A stretch of DNA of 64,000 nt. It comes from Actinobacteria bacterium HGW-Actinobacteria-7. GTDB lineage: Bacteria; Actinomycetota; Coriobacteriia; Anaerosomatales; PHET01. Under the pieces are notes generated by a model that saw only the letters and a program-made list of their open reading frames with translations, made no database searches and had not been told where the DNA came from. Location: positions 87,289 to 151,288 of the forward strand of contig PHET01000004.1 of NCBI GenBank assembly GCA_002841275.1. The letters run 5' to 3'. Of this stretch, positions 19,119 through 24,407 are shown in pieces. Position 1 is the first letter of the stretch, and each line of letters opens with the position of its first letter. A program made the translations under genes and the position numbers.

Positions 19119-20027
19119 ATGCAACAACCAACACTCATCGGCGAGGATGCTTCGGCCCTCGCAGCGCTTGCGCAGGTCAAGGTGGTCTACACCGACCTCG
19201 ACGGAACGCTGCTGGCCAAAGGCGGTTGCGTGCTCGCCGACTCCGGGGGCGTGCCGTCCGCTACGGTCGCTCAGGCTATCGTCGCCCTCAACACGGCGGG
19301 CCTCTCGGTAGTACCCATCTCAGGACGCGGCCGGCTACAGCTCATCGAGCTCACCCGCCTGCTGGGGTGGAAGGATTTCATCGCCGAGGCTGGCGCGATC
19401 ATCGTCAGCGGCGTAGGCGGCCCCGCTGGCGCCACGGTCACCTACAACAACGGGCATTGGCCCGCTGACTTGCTCGCACCCGGCGAGACTCCGTACGGCG
19501 TCATCGAGCGCTCGGGTGCCTACGAGCTACTGCGCGAGGCCTTCCCCGATCTCATCGAGTACCACACGCCTTGGCACGAGAACCGGGAAGCCACGCATCT
19601 GCTGCGTGGCTGTCTGGATGTCCGAGAAGCCCAAGCGCTGCTCAACCAACTCACGCCGGCCATCGGCATTCTGGACAACGGTGTGGTGCGCAACCCCGGT
19701 GACCTGAAGTGCAACGGGGAACTCCCCCACGCCTACCACCTCGTGCCCTGCGGAGTGAGCAAGGCCCAGGCAATCGAGCTCGACCTCGCGGCTCGCGGAC
19801 TGACTCGCGCCGAGGCTGCAGCGATCGGGGACTCAGCGACCGACATCGAGATGGCCGACGCGGTTGCGGTGATGGCGCTGGTGGACAACGCCTTCGAAAG
19901 CACCGGCGTGCGCTCCGAACTCGAGCGCGTCGTACGTCCCAACGTCTACCGAACCTGTTGCCAGCGCGGCGACGGCTGGGCCGAATTCGCCGCCGCATGG
20001 CTCGCAGCGACCGGCGCGAACGTCTAG
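19119..20027 (+). CDS. HAD-superfamily (Cof-like) hydrolase
   Basis: Contains VYTDLDGTLL (DxDxT), PISGR and GDSATDIEMA. Confidence 0.8.
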   Translation: MQQPTLIGEDASALAALAQVKVVYTDLDGTLLAKGGCVLADSGGVPSATVAQAIVALNTAGLSVVPISGRGRLQLIELTRLLGWKDFIAEAGAIIVSGVGGPAGATVTYNNGHWPADLLAPGETPYGVIERSGAYELLREAFPDLIEYHTPWHENREATHLLRGCLDVREAQALLNQLTPAIGILDNGVVRNPGDLKCNGELPHAYHLVPCGVSKAQAIELDLAARGLTRAEAAAIGDSATDIEMADAVAVMALVDNAFESTGVRSELERVVRPNVYRTCCQRGDGWAEFAAAWLAATGANV

Positions 20028-20130
20028 CCCCACCTGCCGCACGGTTGCCCCCACTATCGTCCGAGGTGTACGATTCGTCTGTTCGGGCCACGCTCGCGTA
20101 CCCGGATATTGACAGCCGAGGAAGTCAGCT

Positions 20131-20357
20131 CCGTCCGTTACGGTGCGGCTCCTGTTCGAACACAGGCCACTGCCCGGAAATGTCGAGAGACGCCAATGGG
20201 TAGAACAGCCCTCGCCGGCTTAAGGCGAAGGCTAAGGTGGCTGGGCTCGTGGACCGGCGCGCAAGCGACCGGCACCACAGGTGGGGCACGACCCCATCGC
20301 GTCGACGACACCACGCGTCGCGCGCCCTACGTCGGACAGTGCCAAATCCACAGACGA
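20131..20357 (+). promoter_or_regulatory. M-box (ykoK) Mg2+ riboswitch aptamer
   Basis: GUUACGGUGCGGCUCCUGU...CACUGCCCGGAAAUGUCGAGAGACGCCAAUGGGUAGAACAG...UUAAGGCG...GCUAAGGUGGCUGG...ACAGUGCCAAAUCCACAGACG aligns block by block with the B. subtilis mgtE M-box as I remember it (GUUAGGUGAGGCUCCUGU...CUGCCCAAAAAUGUCCAAAGACGCUAAUGGGUCAACAG...ACAGUGCUAAAGCUCUACG). Confidence 0.9.
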
Positions 20358-20442
20358 GGGATCGAGCGGTGACAGACCGGCACGTGCTCCCGCCTGAGGT
20401 GGGTCCGCGTGCTGTCATGTGCGCGACGCACACCACCGTACG

Positions 20443-20474
20443 CCCCTGGTCCCAACGGACGCAGGGGTTTTTCT
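20443..20474 (+). terminator. intrinsic terminator (M-box expression platform)
   Basis: CCCCTGGTCC-caac-GGAC(G)CAGGGG followed by TTTTTCT. Confidence 0.8.
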
Positions 20475-20695
20475 ATTGCCGAGAAGCCCAGCGAACCGTC
20501 TCTGCCGTCATGACCTGTAGCCGAAGAGATCAGGGCCTGCGTGAAACCTCACAGTCCATAGGCCCTCCGTGCGCTCCTCGCCGTGTGATGGCAGGGGGTC
20601 CGGAGGACCGCCTGTTGCCCACCGTAGTCCACCGCTTGGCCCGGGTCTCGGCGATTCAGACGCCGCCCGAGCCCTGACCGGAAGGGAGGAGCGCC

Positions 20696-22564
20696 ATGTA
20701 CTACCTCTCGCAGATGCTAGGCAAGCCTGTCGTCGATGCGTCAGGCGATGAGATCGGGATCATCAACGACATCGCCATCGCCACCGGCGAGGTCTTCCCG
20801 CGAGTCACCTCACTCGCATTTCTCGGTCCCGAGAAGACGCCGTTCATGCTTTCGTGGCGCAAGTACGTCGCCCAGATCGACGCCGAGCAGGTCCTGCTCA
20901 ACGTCCCGGCGCCCGAGATCCGCTTCTCCTACCTGCAGCCTGACGAGGTGCTCCTGCACCGTGACCTGCTCAACAAGCAGATCGTCGACACGCAGGGCAT
21001 GAAGATTGTCCGCGTAAACGACCTGAAACTCTCGGAATCACGCAACCAGCTGCGTCTCCTGGGTGCCGAAGTCGGCACGCGCGGCATCCTGCGGGGAATC
21101 TCTCCGACTCTCGAAAACGCCGCCCGCAAGGCGCTGCGCCTGATCGGTCGCGACCTCCCCGAGACGCTCATTGCCTGGAACTACATGGACCTGCTCGACC
21201 GCGACCTGAGCCAGGTGAAGCTCTCCGTCACGCACAAGCGGCTGCACGAGCTTCACCCGGCTGATGTCGCGGACATCCTCGAGCAGCTCTCTCCCAGCCA
21301 GAGGGCTGCGGTCTTCGCGCACCTGGACAACGAGGCTGCGGCCGAGACGATCTCCGAGCTGGAAGACGAGTACCAGGCCGACGTGATCGACGACCTGTCA
21401 GAGCGTCGGGCCTCCGATCTGCTGGCAGAGATGGACCCGGACGACGCCGCTGACATCGTTGGAGACCTGTCGCGCGAGAAGGCCGAGCGGCTGCTGCGCC
21501 TCATGGGCGTCGAGGACGCGACCGCCATCCGCGGGCTTCTGGGCTACAAGGAGAAGACAGCCGGCGGCATCATGACACCGGAGGTCACCACGGTGACCGA
21601 GGAGATGTCGGTCGCGGGCGTCATCGAGCACCTCCGTGACATCGCCGAAGAGCAGGAGTCGATCTACTACGTCTACGTGGTCGAGGGAGACCGCCACCTC
21701 ACCGGCGTCATCTCGCTGCGCGACCTGCTGCTGGCGCAGCCGGAAACGTTGGTGTCCGCTCTCGCGAAGACCGACCTGTTCACATCGCACCCTGACGACG
21801 ATCAGGAAGACGTCGCCGACCAGATGAGCAAGTACGACCTGCTCGCCCTTCCCGTTGTGGACGAGACCGGCAAGCTGCTGGGTATCGTGACCGTCGACGA
21901 CGCACTCGACGTACTCGAGGAGGAAGCCCAGGAGGATCTCGCAATCGCCACCGGCTCCTCCCACGAGCGGGGCCCTGCAGCCAGTCTATGGAACCGCCTC
22001 TGGCGACGCAGCCTGTGGATCGCCGTGTGGGCTGCGGCCCTACTGGGCGTGACGTCGTGGAGCATGACCACCAACGAACAGGTAAGTGCGAACGGCGGCC
22101 CATTCTGGCTTGCTGCGGCGGTCACGTTCGTCTCAGGCGCGGTTCTTCTGCTTCCTCTCGCGTTGCGCACCGCCGAAGAGTCCTCTTCGAGGGCAGTCGC
22201 CGAGATCATCGAAGGAGATGACGACGAGCGGCCGTCATTGAATCGTCGCATCTTCGCCGAGGGCTCGGTGGGACTGGCCATGGGGCTCGCGTCTGGCCTC
22301 ATCGCCTTCGGTTACGGGTGGGTGCGCCACTACGGTCCTGAGATGTCGGCCCTCTTCGGCATCGTCACCGGTCTCTCCATTCTGCTCACGGTGTTCTTTG
22401 GCAGCGTGCTCGCCGATGCCGCCCTGCGGAGGAGCGACCGTGACCACTCTGTGTCCGCTACCGCGCTGTCGGTCGTGGCCATGCTGTTCGCTGCCATCCT
22501 CTACCTGGGGCTCAGCTACCTCGCTGGATTCGTTGCACAGCTGCTGATGCGCGCAGGCGCGTGA
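20696..22564 (+). CDS. PRC-barrel + MgtE-N + tandem CBS protein with a non-canonical 5-TM C-terminus
   Basis: The N-terminus MYYLSQMLGKPVVDASGDEIGIINDI looks PRC-like. HPADVADILEQLS...DPDDAADIVGDL is the MgtE_N domain, followed by two CBS motifs. The C-terminal helices lack the MgtE pore motif (no GNxGxQ). RBS GGGAGGAG. Confidence 0.8.
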   Translation: MYYLSQMLGKPVVDASGDEIGIINDIAIATGEVFPRVTSLAFLGPEKTPFMLSWRKYVAQIDAEQVLLNVPAPEIRFSYLQPDEVLLHRDLLNKQIVDTQGMKIVRVNDLKLSESRNQLRLLGAEVGTRGILRGISPTLENAARKALRLIGRDLPETLIAWNYMDLLDRDLSQVKLSVTHKRLHELHPADVADILEQLSPSQRAAVFAHLDNEAAAETISELEDEYQADVIDDLSERRASDLLAEMDPDDAADIVGDLSREKAERLLRLMGVEDATAIRGLLGYKEKTAGGIMTPEVTTVTEEMSVAGVIEHLRDIAEEQESIYYVYVVEGDRHLTGVISLRDLLLAQPETLVSALAKTDLFTSHPDDDQEDVADQMSKYDLLALPVVDETGKLLGIVTVDDALDVLEEEAQEDLAIATGSSHERGPAASLWNRLWRRSLWIAVWAAALLGVTSWSMTTNEQVSANGGPFWLAAAVTFVSGAVLLLPLALRTAEESSSRAVAEIIEGDDDERPSLNRRIFAEGSVGLAMGLASGLIAFGYGWVRHYGPEMSALFGIVTGLSILLTVFFGSVLADAALRRSDRDHSVSATALSVVAMLFAAILYLGLSYLAGFVAQLLMRAGA

Positions 22565-23820
22565 ACTCGGCACCCGCTCCGCGCAGGCGCGCCCGGTTTC
22601 TCGCACTGTTGGCAGTGATGGGGCCCGGGATCGTGGCCGCATCCGCCGGCAACGACGCCGGCGGCATCTCGACGTACTCGGTCGATGGCGCGAGCTATGG
22701 CTACGCCACGCTGTGGATGATATTCGTGATGACCTTCTCGCTCGTGGTGGTCCAAGAGATGGCCGCTCGAATGGGAGCGGTCACCGGCAAGGGCTTCGCG
22801 GCGCTGATTCGCGAGAAGTTCGGCGTACGACCCACCCTGTTCGCGATGCTCGCCCTGCTGGTGAGCAACGCGGCCACCAGCATTGCCGAGTTCGCCGGTG
22901 TCGCCGCGGGCATGGAGCTGTTCGGGGTCAGCAAGTACATCTCGGTCCCTATTGCCGCAATCGTCGTGTGGCTGCTGGTTGTCCGCGGCAGCTACCGCAA
23001 CGTCGAGAAGGTCTTCCTGGCCCTCTCGAGCATCTTCCTCGCCTACGTCGTCGCGGCGTTTCTCGCCAAACCCGATTGGGGCGCAGTGCTCACGGCGACG
23101 GTCGTGCCTCAGTTCGTGCCCAAGGTCGACTTCGTGCTGCTGGTCGTCGCGACCGTTGGTACCACGATCGCGCCGTGGATGCAGTTCTTCGTGCAGAGCA
23201 ACATCGTCGACAAGGGCGTGAACGTCAAAGACCTGGGCTTGCAGCGCGTCGATGTCATCGCTGGCGCAATCGCGGCCAACATCGTTGCGTGGTTCATCAT
23301 CGTGACCACCGGAACGGTCTTGTTCCCCAAGGGCATCGAGATCACGGGGGCCGAGCAGGCGGCGCTCGCACTGGCACCCGTCGCGGGCCAGTACGCCACG
23401 GTGCTGTTCGGGGTAGGGCTCATCTCGGCGTCCCTGCTGGCCGCCTGTGTCCTCCCACTCACGGCCGCCTACGCGATCACGGAGGCGTTCGGCTGGGAAC
23501 GGGGCATCGACCGCACATGGACGGAAGCCCCGGCATTCAACGCCATCTACACGTTCGTCATCTTCTTCGGAGCGGCGTGGGTACTCATCCCCAACGCGCC
23601 ATTGATCACCATCATGGTCCTCTCGCAGGCCATCAATGGCATACTCTTGCCATTCCTTCTCATCTACATGATCAAGATCATCAACGACCGCCGTATCATG
23701 GGTAAGCATGTCAACGGCAGGACCACCAACGTGCTTGCATGGACCACCACCATCGTTGTGATCGGTCTGAGCATCGCCCTATTGGGCGGGTCGGCTCTCC
23801 AGGGACTGGGGCTCTTGTGA
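22561..23820 (+). CDS. NRAMP-related magnesium transporter (NRMT subgroup of SLC11)
   Basis: GTGA overlap with the upstream gene. The TM1 motif is NDAGG instead of DPGN, and the TM6 motif is GTTIAPW instead of GA(T/I)(V/I)MPH. I remember this substitution pattern from the Eggerthella lenta NRMT. Confidence 0.85.
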   Translation: MNSAPAPRRRARFLALLAVMGPGIVAASAGNDAGGISTYSVDGASYGYATLWMIFVMTFSLVVVQEMAARMGAVTGKGFAALIREKFGVRPTLFAMLALLVSNAATSIAEFAGVAAGMELFGVSKYISVPIAAIVVWLLVVRGSYRNVEKVFLALSSIFLAYVVAAFLAKPDWGAVLTATVVPQFVPKVDFVLLVVATVGTTIAPWMQFFVQSNIVDKGVNVKDLGLQRVDVIAGAIAANIVAWFIIVTTGTVLFPKGIEITGAEQAALALAPVAGQYATVLFGVGLISASLLAACVLPLTAAYAITEAFGWERGIDRTWTEAPAFNAIYTFVIFFGAAWVLIPNAPLITIMVLSQAINGILLPFLLIYMIKIINDRRIMGKHVNGRTTNVLAWTTTIVVIGLSIALLGGSALQGLGLL

Positions 23821-24407
23821 ACGAACCGCTCGACATTTCGGCGCAGAAGGCCGCAATCCGTGTCCACGTTCGGGCCGTACGAGCGGATATCGATCTGGAC
23901 AAGTGTCTCGAGGATTCCGCCAAGCTCGCCGAGAACCTCCTCGCGATGGTTGAGCTGACCGCGGCGAGTATCGTGCTCGCATACAGGGCAATGCCCGAGG
24001 AGATCGATCCGGCTCCCACTCTCCGCGCTTTGAGAGCATCCGGTGTTGCCATCGCGTACCCGCGAATCGAGGCCCCGGGGATCGTGCGGCTGCACCTCGC
24101 AACCGCCGACACCGTGTGGCTCCCTGGCCCGTTCGGCCTGGCCGAACCCCCGGCGGATACGCCTTGCGTGGACCCCGCGCTCATTGATGCGGTGCTCGTG
24201 CCGGGCGTGGCGTTTGATCCCGCTGGCGGACGGCTTGGAATCGGCGGCGGCTACTACGACCGACTGATCCCGCAGTTCCGTACAGACTGCCTGCTGATCG
24301 GCATCGCATTCGACGAGCAGGTGCTCGATGAGGTCCCCGTTGAAGCACATGACGCACGCGTGCATGCCGTGGCAACCCCGACGCGGGTGTTGAGGGCGAA
24401 GCCCTAG
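23817..24407 (+). CDS. 5-formyltetrahydrofolate cyclo-ligase
   Basis: Trimmed to the GTG at 23817 (GTGA overlap). Contains VLVPGVAFD and GIGGGYYDRL. Confidence 0.8.
   Translation: MNEPLDISAQKAAIRVHVRAVRADIDLDKCLEDSAKLAENLLAMVELTAASIVLAYRAMPEEIDPAPTLRALRASGVAIAYPRIEAPGIVRLHLATADTVWLPGPFGLAEPPADTPCVDPALIDAVLVPGVAFDPAGGRLGIGGGYYDRLIPQFRTDCLLIGIAFDEQVLDEVPVEAHDARVHAVATPTRVLRAKP

Follow-up and report, generated by a model that had tools for sequence, protein, structure and literature searches.

NRMTs, the Nramp-related Mg2+ transporters, form the fourth class of bacterial Mg2+ importer. The closest described systems to the one treated here are the 'mgtE-nramp operons' of Shin et al. (2014, PLoS Genet; PMC4072509), in which an MgtE-like fragment, often M-box-controlled and co-transcribed, is encoded next to the transporter, and for which these authors proposed either cytoplasmic feedback regulation of NrmT or a function as a metal chaperone. 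The question of what this near-universally co-encoded partner does dates from 2014. The NRMT of Eggerthella lenta (EleNRMT), the only structural and biochemical model of the class, works as a uniporter that is not coupled to H+ and draws on the membrane potential (PMC8806188), and it was studied without its co-encoded partner. Here, we report on a locus in a 64,000-nucleotide stretch of DNA (the window; positions 87,289 to 151,288 of contig PHET01000004.1) from Actinobacteria bacterium HGW-Actinobacteria-7, a member of the Coriobacteriia, in which an NRMT gene is directly preceded by a gene for a 622-residue, MgtE-related protein, referred to below as the partner.

The partner is an MgtE-derived pseudo-channel that has kept the cytosolic Mg2+ sensor and a five-helix membrane domain, and has lost the pore. 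An initial annotation, made from the letters of the window alone, had proposed a Mg2+-sensing subunit for the NRMT and knew of no description of such a two-component system. That last claim does not stand, since both the pairing and the regulatory idea are already found in Shin et al. 2014 (PMC4072509), and neither the two-gene system nor the regulatory hypothesis is therefore new. The pairing has been known since 2014; the membrane-embedded form of the partner was no part of that description, and together with its relatives this locus makes the question of function testable. The individual features on which the annotation was built (the open reading frame, the PRC barrel, the MgtE_N domain, the CBS pair, five helices, the missing GNxGxQ motif, a GTGA overlap and an M-box) were all recovered where it had placed them.

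A complete Mg2+ sensor joined to a pore-dead MgtE membrane domain

The partner gene occupies 20696-22564 (this and all further coordinates are those of the window, forward strand), and open reading frame calling, Pfam and NCBIfam profiles, family conservation and AlphaFold2 agree on the order PRC-MgtE_N-CBS followed by a pore-dead MgtE transmembrane (TM) domain. The structural model used here was computed from a diverse alignment of 106 sequences, with a mean predicted local distance difference test score (pLDDT) of 92 and a predicted TM-score of 0.77; a run with 31 close homologues fell below a pLDDT of 50 at residues 78-126 and 157-181, and the N-terminus of that model is unreliable. In the model used, the N-terminal 170 residues form two small beta-barrels and then a helical hairpin. 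PRC-barrel 1 (residues 1-75; 20696-20920) is matched by Pfam PRC over residues 1-55 with 47.8 bits (PF05239; gathering threshold (GA) 21.2), and is modelled as a beta-barrel (E11-68) at a pLDDT of ~96. The following segment (20921-21250) holds a second PRC-like barrel (residues 84-125), the hairpin (128-149) and a linker; its PF05239 match, at residues 86-128, is weak and sub-threshold (17.5 bits), and the stretch is nevertheless modelled by AlphaFold2 as a second barrel at a pLDDT of ~95. The tandem PRC extension thus formed, of ~180 residues, lies N-terminal to the MgtE-like part, which consists of an MgtE_N domain (residues 186-286; 21251-21553; PF03448, 100.8 bits), a CBS pair (residues 287-415; 21554-21940; two PF00571 matches, 74 bits) and a degenerate five-helix MgtE TM domain (residues 427-619; 21974-22552). 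The five C-terminal helices (H427-466, 470-506, 515-543, 547-581 and 588-619) are seen both in hydropathy and in the AlphaFold2 model, where the pLDDT is mostly above 85.

The partner is not a chance open reading frame: relatives were found in 234 species-level genomes when each species was represented by one genome, and clustering at 90% identity leaves more than 120 clusters with full-length identities to it of 63-81%. The best 80 of the 234 relatives are all 600-632 residues long and come mainly from metagenome-assembled genomes (MAGs) of Coriobacteriia, and a separate contig look-up found the same gene pair in Anaerosoma tenue. Within the family, the mean pairwise identity is 74% for PRC barrel 1 (residues 1-75), 82% for residues 76-185 (second barrel, hairpin and linker, the best conserved segment of the partner), 79% for MgtE_N, 72% for the CBS pair and 33% for the TM domain.

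The cytosolic sites Mg2 to Mg7 of the Thermus thermophilus channel (TtMgtE) are formed by E258, D259, D91/D247, D226/D250, D95 and E59, respectively (PMC5882242). When aligned to TtMgtE, the partner has all of these ligands, as E413, D414, D249/D402, D381/D405, D253 and E217, with the MgtE_N domain contributing those to Mg4, Mg6 and Mg7 (D249, D253 and E217, mapping to D91, D95 and E59) and the CBS pair those to Mg2, Mg3, Mg4 and Mg5 (E413, D414, D402, D381 and D405). Seven of the eight ligand positions are Asp or Glu in 75-77 of 77 family members, and the remaining one, that of E59 in site Mg7, is acidic in 58 of the 77. The modelled N and CBS part superposes on Mg2+-bound TtMgtE, both in 2yvy (target-normalised TM-score 0.89, 2.7 A) and in 5x9g (0.87, 1.5 A). 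The partner thus keeps the complete MgtE-type Mg2+-sensing machinery, i.e. the N domain and the CBS pair with all of their ligands.

The membrane domain tells of a different history. It had been read in the initial annotation as a non-MgtE domain, and this candidate is rejected. A profile built from the TM region of 73 family members matched the canonical MgtE TM profile in hhalign at 98% (E 1.9e-13) over 166 columns that include all five helices, and PF01769 scores fall along a gradient, from 100-112 bits in PRC-fused proteins with an intact motif and an equivalent of Asp432, through intermediates of 60-62 bits that retain G.QS and are without the Asp, to 20.6 bits in the window protein (the representatives of this pore-state series were drawn from a search of 1.84 billion proteins). 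On the strength of the hhalign result, the score gradient and the intermediate sequences, we conclude that the TM domain is MgtE-derived. Homology also runs through the protein beyond this domain, as residues 180-606 align to T. thermophilus MgtE in phmmer, the identity to this channel is 35% over 397 aligned residues, and Foldseek aligned 443 columns to full-length MgtE structures (E 1e-25).

What has been lost is the pore. No GNxGxQ motif was found in the partner, in which P487-LALRTAEESSSR aligns with P321-VLLGTGGNTGNQ of TtMgtE; the position of the GGNxGxQ motif reads RTAEESSSR, and P487 (TtMgtE P321) is the only residue of the TM2 motif that is retained. Residue by residue, G325 of TtMgtE is replaced by R491, N329 by E495, N332 by S498, Q333 by R499, D418 by R582 and D432 by M596, and E275 is lost as well. 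Asp432 is the selectivity filter, and no other acidic residue of the pore is conserved throughout MgtE and SLC41 (PMC4241985); at the equivalent position, the 77 family members have Met in 51 cases, Ala in 14, Leu in 3 and Val in 2. Few TM residues are invariant (R437, R438, W441, W445, P487, L490, R491 and M596), the best conserved part of the TM region is the cytoplasmic TM2-TM3 loop, and all five helices have kept their hydrophobicity in every family member. The identity of 33% in the TM domain compares with 72-82% for the cytosolic parts, whereas the corresponding values in a control class of pore-intact proteins are 36% and 44%. By this measure, the domain is under relaxed constraint and evolves like a membrane anchor.

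These features bear directly on whether the partner could be a divergent but functional MgtE-type channel, in which case the operon would encode two parallel Mg2+ importers. Several observations would suit such a channel: Foldseek aligns the MgtE-like part with TtMgtE along its whole length, the TM domain is homologous to that of MgtE and has been kept with five helices in all ~80 species, M-box control is typical of mgtE (PMC4072509), and source annotations label the family 'magnesium transporter' or 'MgtE'. On the other hand, the pore Asp has become Met (Ala, Leu or Val in relatives), the Gly/Asn/Gln motif of TM2 has given way to charged residues, and within the protein, sequence conservation is lowest in the TM domain. 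The profile scores are in keeping with this, as PF01769 gives only a partial match (residues 497-575) below its GA of 27.6 bits, and TIGR00400, the mgtE equivalog, reaches 222 bits where 232.75 are required, its match being confined to residues 172-442, the cytosolic part. There is thus no confident PF01769 match with conserved pore residues, and the earlier proposal that the protein is something other than a channel is supported: given the loss of both the pore Asp and the TM2 motif, and the fast evolution of the membrane domain, it is very unlikely that the partner conducts Mg2+ itself. The database names given to hundreds of family entries are probably mis-annotations.

Loss of the pore could in principle also mark a decaying mgtE relic, left to become a pseudogene after the NRMT took over Mg2+ uptake, and the fast evolution of the TM domain together with the missing pore residues is what such decay would produce. 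However, the reading frame is intact and of conserved length in ~80 species, the cytosolic parts have stayed 72-82% identical, the Mg2+ ligands are invariant, the five-helix hydrophobic pattern is kept and the AlphaFold2 model is confident, and these conservation data effectively refute decay already.

The downstream transporter and its linkage to pore loss

The NRMT gene (22561-23820; 419 residues; PF01566, 316 bits) begins within the end of the partner gene, the TGA stop codon of the partner at 22562-22564 overlapping the GTG start codon at 22561-22563 (GTGA, 22561-22564). Such an overlap is a sign of translational coupling and implies stoichiometric co-production of the two proteins. Against the solved EleNRMT structure (7qia) the transporter scores E 2.7e-151, compared with ~1e-28 at best for canonical MntH structures, and it is 61% identical to EleNRMT over 404 residues. 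Its site residues D32 (in D32-A-G-G35), G35, T201, A204, Q356 and E110 align with D55, G58, T224, A227, Q379 and E133 of EleNRMT, and it carries the signature of the NRMT clade, in which the Asp of TM1 is kept and the Asn is changed to Gly, Ala and Met of TM6 are changed to Thr and Ala, and alpha10 and alpha3 carry Gln and Glu. By the alignment, the Met-to-Ala change (A227) is part of this signature as well. D55, G58, T224, Q379 and E133 have been named as site residues of EleNRMT (PMC8806188). By these alignments the downstream gene is a true NRMT; H+-uncoupled Mg2+ transport is predicted for it by analogy with EleNRMT, where alone it has been demonstrated. The NRMT has no cytosolic sensor of its own, and EleNRMT is without any cytosolic domain.

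An NRMT homologue lies immediately downstream of the partner in 80 of 81 informative Coriobacteriia family loci, and in the 80 related loci the gap between the two genes is mostly -8 to +30 nucleotides (nt). A failure of the linkage to recur in other genomes would have spoken against the initial annotation; the linkage is conserved, and in other phyla as well. Outside the family, an NRMT follows immediately in two of three loci where a PRC protein has five TM helices and a lost pore motif, and in 49 of 51 where it is TM-less (~415-430 residues). It follows in none of the five loci for PRC proteins with five TM helices and an intact pore motif, nor in any of the nine for canonical MgtE without PRC. 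When pooled, the pore-lost five-TM forms are linked in 82 of 84 loci, the TM-less forms in 49 of 51 and the pore-intact forms in 0 of 14 (pore-lost or TM-less vs pore-intact, Fisher exact p = 2e-16, for loci that are not phylogenetically independent). NRMT linkage thus tracks pore loss. That pore-intact relatives never show it (0/14) is a further point against a partner that still works as a channel. The site encoded by the linked Nramp genes is of the NRMT type in all cases, with DxGG or DASG plus GTTI[AT]P.

A sub-clade of the linked Nramp proteins, on metagenome contigs (L092-L108), has DASG rather than DAGG on helix 1 and GTTITP on helix 6, and the otherwise conserved Gln of alpha10 is replaced by Ser or Ala. 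The TM-less partners at these loci share 56-60% identity with the cytosolic portion of a pore-intact PRC-MgtE (P0170), which suggests recent or repeated TM loss, and the site residues of the transporters could possibly indicate a different substrate.

The partner and NRMT genes are co-transcribed as an operon, which is preceded by an M-box (Mg2+) riboswitch aptamer at 20127-20368 (Rfam RF00380, 113.2 bits against a GA of 44, E 1.7e-24, full model 1-169). An M-box lies upstream of the partner gene in 79 of 82 family loci. Among 16 loci sampled from other lineages, only 1 has an M-box; these were scored by Rfam scans, an nhmmer model built from Coriobacteriia M-boxes being too insensitive there. 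Control by an M-box is thus a hallmark of the Coriobacteriia family and rare elsewhere.

Relatives of the partner show how far the membrane domain can be reduced. Proteins that are 91-92% identical to EleNRMT (from Paraeggerthella and relatives; L171:3644-6296 and L173:3645-6416) are preceded by a 450-residue Eggerthellaceae partner in which PRC-MgtE_N-CBS is followed by a single C-terminal hydrophobic helix, a tail anchor, and which is 62% identical to residues 1-422 of the window protein. No M-box was found at these two loci in an Rfam scan, and a gene for an Rrf2-family regulator lies downstream there. Within one bacterial class, the former channel domain thus exists in two states, as a bundle of five helices with a dead pore or as one anchor helix, and in other phyla it is absent. 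The one-helix, tail-anchored form indicates that tethering, and not conduction, is the residual role of the TM part; sister lineages in which the TM domain is cut to one helix or none, with the NRMT linkage kept, likewise speak against a functional channel, an alternative that on all of these grounds we regard as very improbable.

The same forms bear on the possibility that the partner is a Mg2+-independent factor for assembly, stability or membrane insertion, whose MgtE-derived TM domain would pack against the NRMT. Translational coupling and the retained five-TM domain, with its invariant residues (R437 to M596, as listed above), are compatible with such a factor. Nonetheless, EleNRMT and the NrmT of Clostridium acetobutylicum express and work alone (PMC8806188, PMC4072509), the partner is TM-less in most lineages, and the strongest constraint falls on the cytosolic domains that bear the Mg2+ ligands and not on the TM domain, so that we hold an assembly factor to be improbable.

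Two further kinds of relatives show the sensor module with other membrane proteins. In two assemblies of a related organism (L177:1423-8382 and L178; Logan SRR31012037/38), an M-box is followed by a 1314-residue protein, a 621-residue pore-dead partner and an NRMT. The 1314-residue protein (P0126) unites a paralogous PRC-MgtE_N-CBS module and a bona fide MgtA Mg2+ P-type ATPase (TIGR01524, 1120 bits) in one chain, and the identity of this sensor module is 58.5% to the window protein and 61% to the neighbouring 621-residue partner; a second, partial fusion of CBS to a P-type ATPase (P0430) comes from a Thermoleophilia MAG. We know of no description of an MgtE-sensor-MgtA fusion. Covalent attachment to MgtA, a fusion of the Rosetta-stone kind, argues that the module acts on transporters.

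The second kind are pore-intact PRC-MgtE proteins of 603-620 residues (P0170 from Nitrospirota, P0274 from Riflebacteria, and P0267; loci L087, L089, L090, L091 and L110), which share the N-terminal extension, matched from residues 1-8, with Pfam PRC detected in P0170 and P0267 and not in P0274. No NRMT was found within 4-5 kb of these five loci. The pore-intact proteins have the look of ordinary channels that work on their own, and theirs is probably the ancestral state. The initial annotation had called the window protein chimeric, and in view of these stand-alone PRC-MgtE channels its architecture is not an ad hoc one. At one of the loci (L090), the gene has its own M-box and adjoins kdp genes. 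Judged by homology, then, three unrelated Mg2+ importers (MgtE pore, MgtA and NRMT) have one and the same sensor module attached to them. One further protein (P0134; 602 residues, from a single ENA contig) joins PRC-MgtE_N and one CBS domain, the pair being truncated, to a SufBD core domain, and is probably an assembly or gene-call chimera.

Possible roles of the partner

In CorA and MgtE, a Mg2+ gate on the cytosolic side is part of the protein itself (PMC4072509). On balance, we favour the reading that the partner supplies such a function in trans, as a Mg2+-sensing regulatory subunit for the putatively H+-uncoupled NRMT, although our preference is a modest one. At low cytosolic Mg2+, the riboswitch would permit synthesis of the partner and the NRMT in fixed proportion, and the membrane-tethered sensor, probably an MgtE-like dimer, would be located beside the transporter. 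As cytosolic Mg2+ recovers, binding of the ion would close the N and CBS domains in the fashion of MgtE, and this closure would inhibit the NRMT, adding a fast post-translational feedback to the slow control by the riboswitch. A riboswitch stops synthesis when Mg2+ is replete but cannot silence transporters that are already in the membrane, which a co-produced sensor that closes upon Mg2+ binding could do. The direction of regulation, as well as the part played by the PRC barrels, is something that we infer. If this gating model is true, uncoupled uptake by NRMT would be kept safe by a borrowed sensor, and the partner would be a clear case of a pseudo-channel turned regulatory subunit. The tail-anchored partner, being from the lineage closest to EleNRMT, is suited to reconstitution.

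A number of points weigh against regulation of the NRMT by the partner. Both NrmT and EleNRMT transport Mg2+ without a partner (PMC4072509, PMC8806188), and in the sole published test, co-expression of the pair from A. capsulatum left the rescue of a Mg2+-transport mutant unchanged (PMC4072509); that pair, however, appears to transport Mn2+. The tight operon linkage could come from co-regulation only, and the physical contact between partner and NRMT that the reading calls for is presumed. PRC barrels as an NRMT-specific docking module are rejected as a sole explanation, because they are also present on pore-intact MgtE proteins that are unlinked to NRMT. In the MgtE-type ATP site of the partner, the phosphate and ribose contacts are kept and the adenine contacts N203 and F227 are replaced by K358 and L382; with both of these changed, the ATP modulation known from MgtE may not carry over. 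Finally, some loci lack the transporter. At L013:5573-8110 (CAMTUW010000038.1), the M-box and partner run straight into 5-formyltetrahydrofolate cyclo-ligase with the NRMT absent, which is either a real deletion or an assembly artefact, and no Nramp gene was found in the available sequence around L176 (P0143, a pore-lost five-TM form), L160 or L163 (both TM-less), where the partner may act on another target or the NRMT may be encoded elsewhere in the genome.

Several of the same points would fit a partner that is a buffer or chaperone for Mg2+ (or Mn2+), or a sensor for some target other than the NRMT, reached for example via its PRC barrels, with the two genes placed together as both respond to low Mg2+. 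A metal chaperone was the alternative offered by Shin et al., the A. capsulatum co-expression was without effect (PMC4072509), and four loci (L013, L160, L163 and L176) are without an adjacent NRMT; in addition, no part of the protein is better conserved than the PRC tandem, which is older than the association with NRMT. Set against this are a linkage that holds almost without exception from phylum to phylum and involves only genes with NRMT-type sites, a stop/start overlap that implies production in stoichiometric amounts, membrane tethering that has been kept in two forms (five TM helices and a single tail anchor), and the covalent fusion of the same module to the MgtA importer. We consider a role of this kind unlikely, though of the rival explanations it is the one to be taken most seriously.

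The regulatory reading of the partner can be extended to a broader one, which we put forward more tentatively and to which we would give somewhat less than even chances. Here, an MgtE would have been exapted as a trans-acting gate of NRMT, the PRC-MgtE_N-CBS unit would be a portable Mg2+ sensor of three importer classes, and the window family would be a preserved intermediate on the way from channel to regulator. The NRMT, a uniporter of the LeuT fold, would be joined in a hetero-complex by an MgtE dimer that is pore-dead and embedded in the membrane, and this dimer would impose gating that depends on cytosolic Mg2+; as a regulator, the module would act in cis on the MgtE pore, through fusion on the MgtA P-type ATPase and in trans on the NRMT. 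The transition may have run from an intact pore through a pore-dead five-TM domain and a one-TM tail anchor to a soluble protein.

Locus layout and comparison with known systems

Between the M-box and the partner gene, folding of the RNA of 20425-20490 gives a terminator-like, GC-rich hairpin (10-11 bp, loop CAAC, one bulge) with a U-tract at 20442-20477, which from the mode of action of M-boxes (PMC4072509) is presumed to be the expression platform of the riboswitch. A consensus promoter and terminator scan had no match at the locus, the bulged stem of a riboswitch terminator being missed by it. A spacer of ~218 nt (20478-20695) separates the terminator from the start codon of the partner gene, and direct reading of the sequence places a strong Shine-Dalgarno-like element, GGAAGGGAGGAG, at 20680-20691, 4 nt ahead of the ATG. 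The partner-NRMT pair is flanked by genes for a Cof-type HAD hydrolase upstream (19119-20027) and a 5-formyltetrahydrofolate cyclo-ligase downstream (23739-24407), both of which are syntenic with the pair in Anaerosoma tenue (L001) and have no obvious functional connection to it; in L177, too, the hydrolase gene is found beside the pair, and in L013 the cyclo-ligase gene is present.

In our literature searches, no paper combined a PRC barrel with MgtE, and none later than 2014 took up the ancillary gene again; the five-helix pore-dead form, the tandem PRC, the degeneration series with its NRMT correlation, the tail-anchored partner of the EleNRMT lineage and the sensor-MgtA fusion were all absent from the searchable literature. 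Compared with the published MgtE-like fragment (PMC4072509), the window protein is likewise homologous to the cytosolic N and CBS part of MgtE, likewise adjoins a gene of the NRMT clade and, as is often the case there, stands behind an M-box, and its TM-less relatives (~415-430 residues, NRMT-linked in 49 of 51 loci) fit the published description. However, the published fragment is a small soluble protein, whereas the window protein has 622 residues and a pore-dead five-helix domain, and the tandem PRC barrel goes unmentioned in the paper, the C. acetobutylicum and A. capsulatum loci being compared here by their description.

With the MgtE channel itself (TtMgtE; PDB 2yvx, 2zy9 and 4u9l), the window protein shares the order of N domain, CBS pair, plug region and five TM helices, as well as the Mg2+ ligands and the TM fold. 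It differs in having Met596 for Asp432, in the loss of GGNxGxQ, D418 and E275, in its sub-threshold profile scores, in the additional tandem PRC and in being obligately paired with an NRMT, unlike its pore-intact relatives. These pore-intact PRC-MgtE proteins have the same PRC-MgtE_N-CBS-five-TM architecture at a similar length and are 27-32% identical to the window protein (P0170, P0221 and P0267), but they score 100-112 bits with PF01769, have GNxGxQ and an equivalent of Asp432, and are unlinked to NRMT.

A conceptual parallel, by analogy only, is offered by the RCK proteins KtrA and TrkA, separate cytosolic gating subunits whose interaction with KtrB and TrkH has been demonstrated, and which, as would be the case here, are ligand-sensing regulators encoded beside the membrane transporter that they gate. 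The folds differ, RCK in the one case and MgtE_N/CBS in the other, the interaction with NRMT is a proposed one, and the putative regulator in the window is a former channel that still resides in the membrane.

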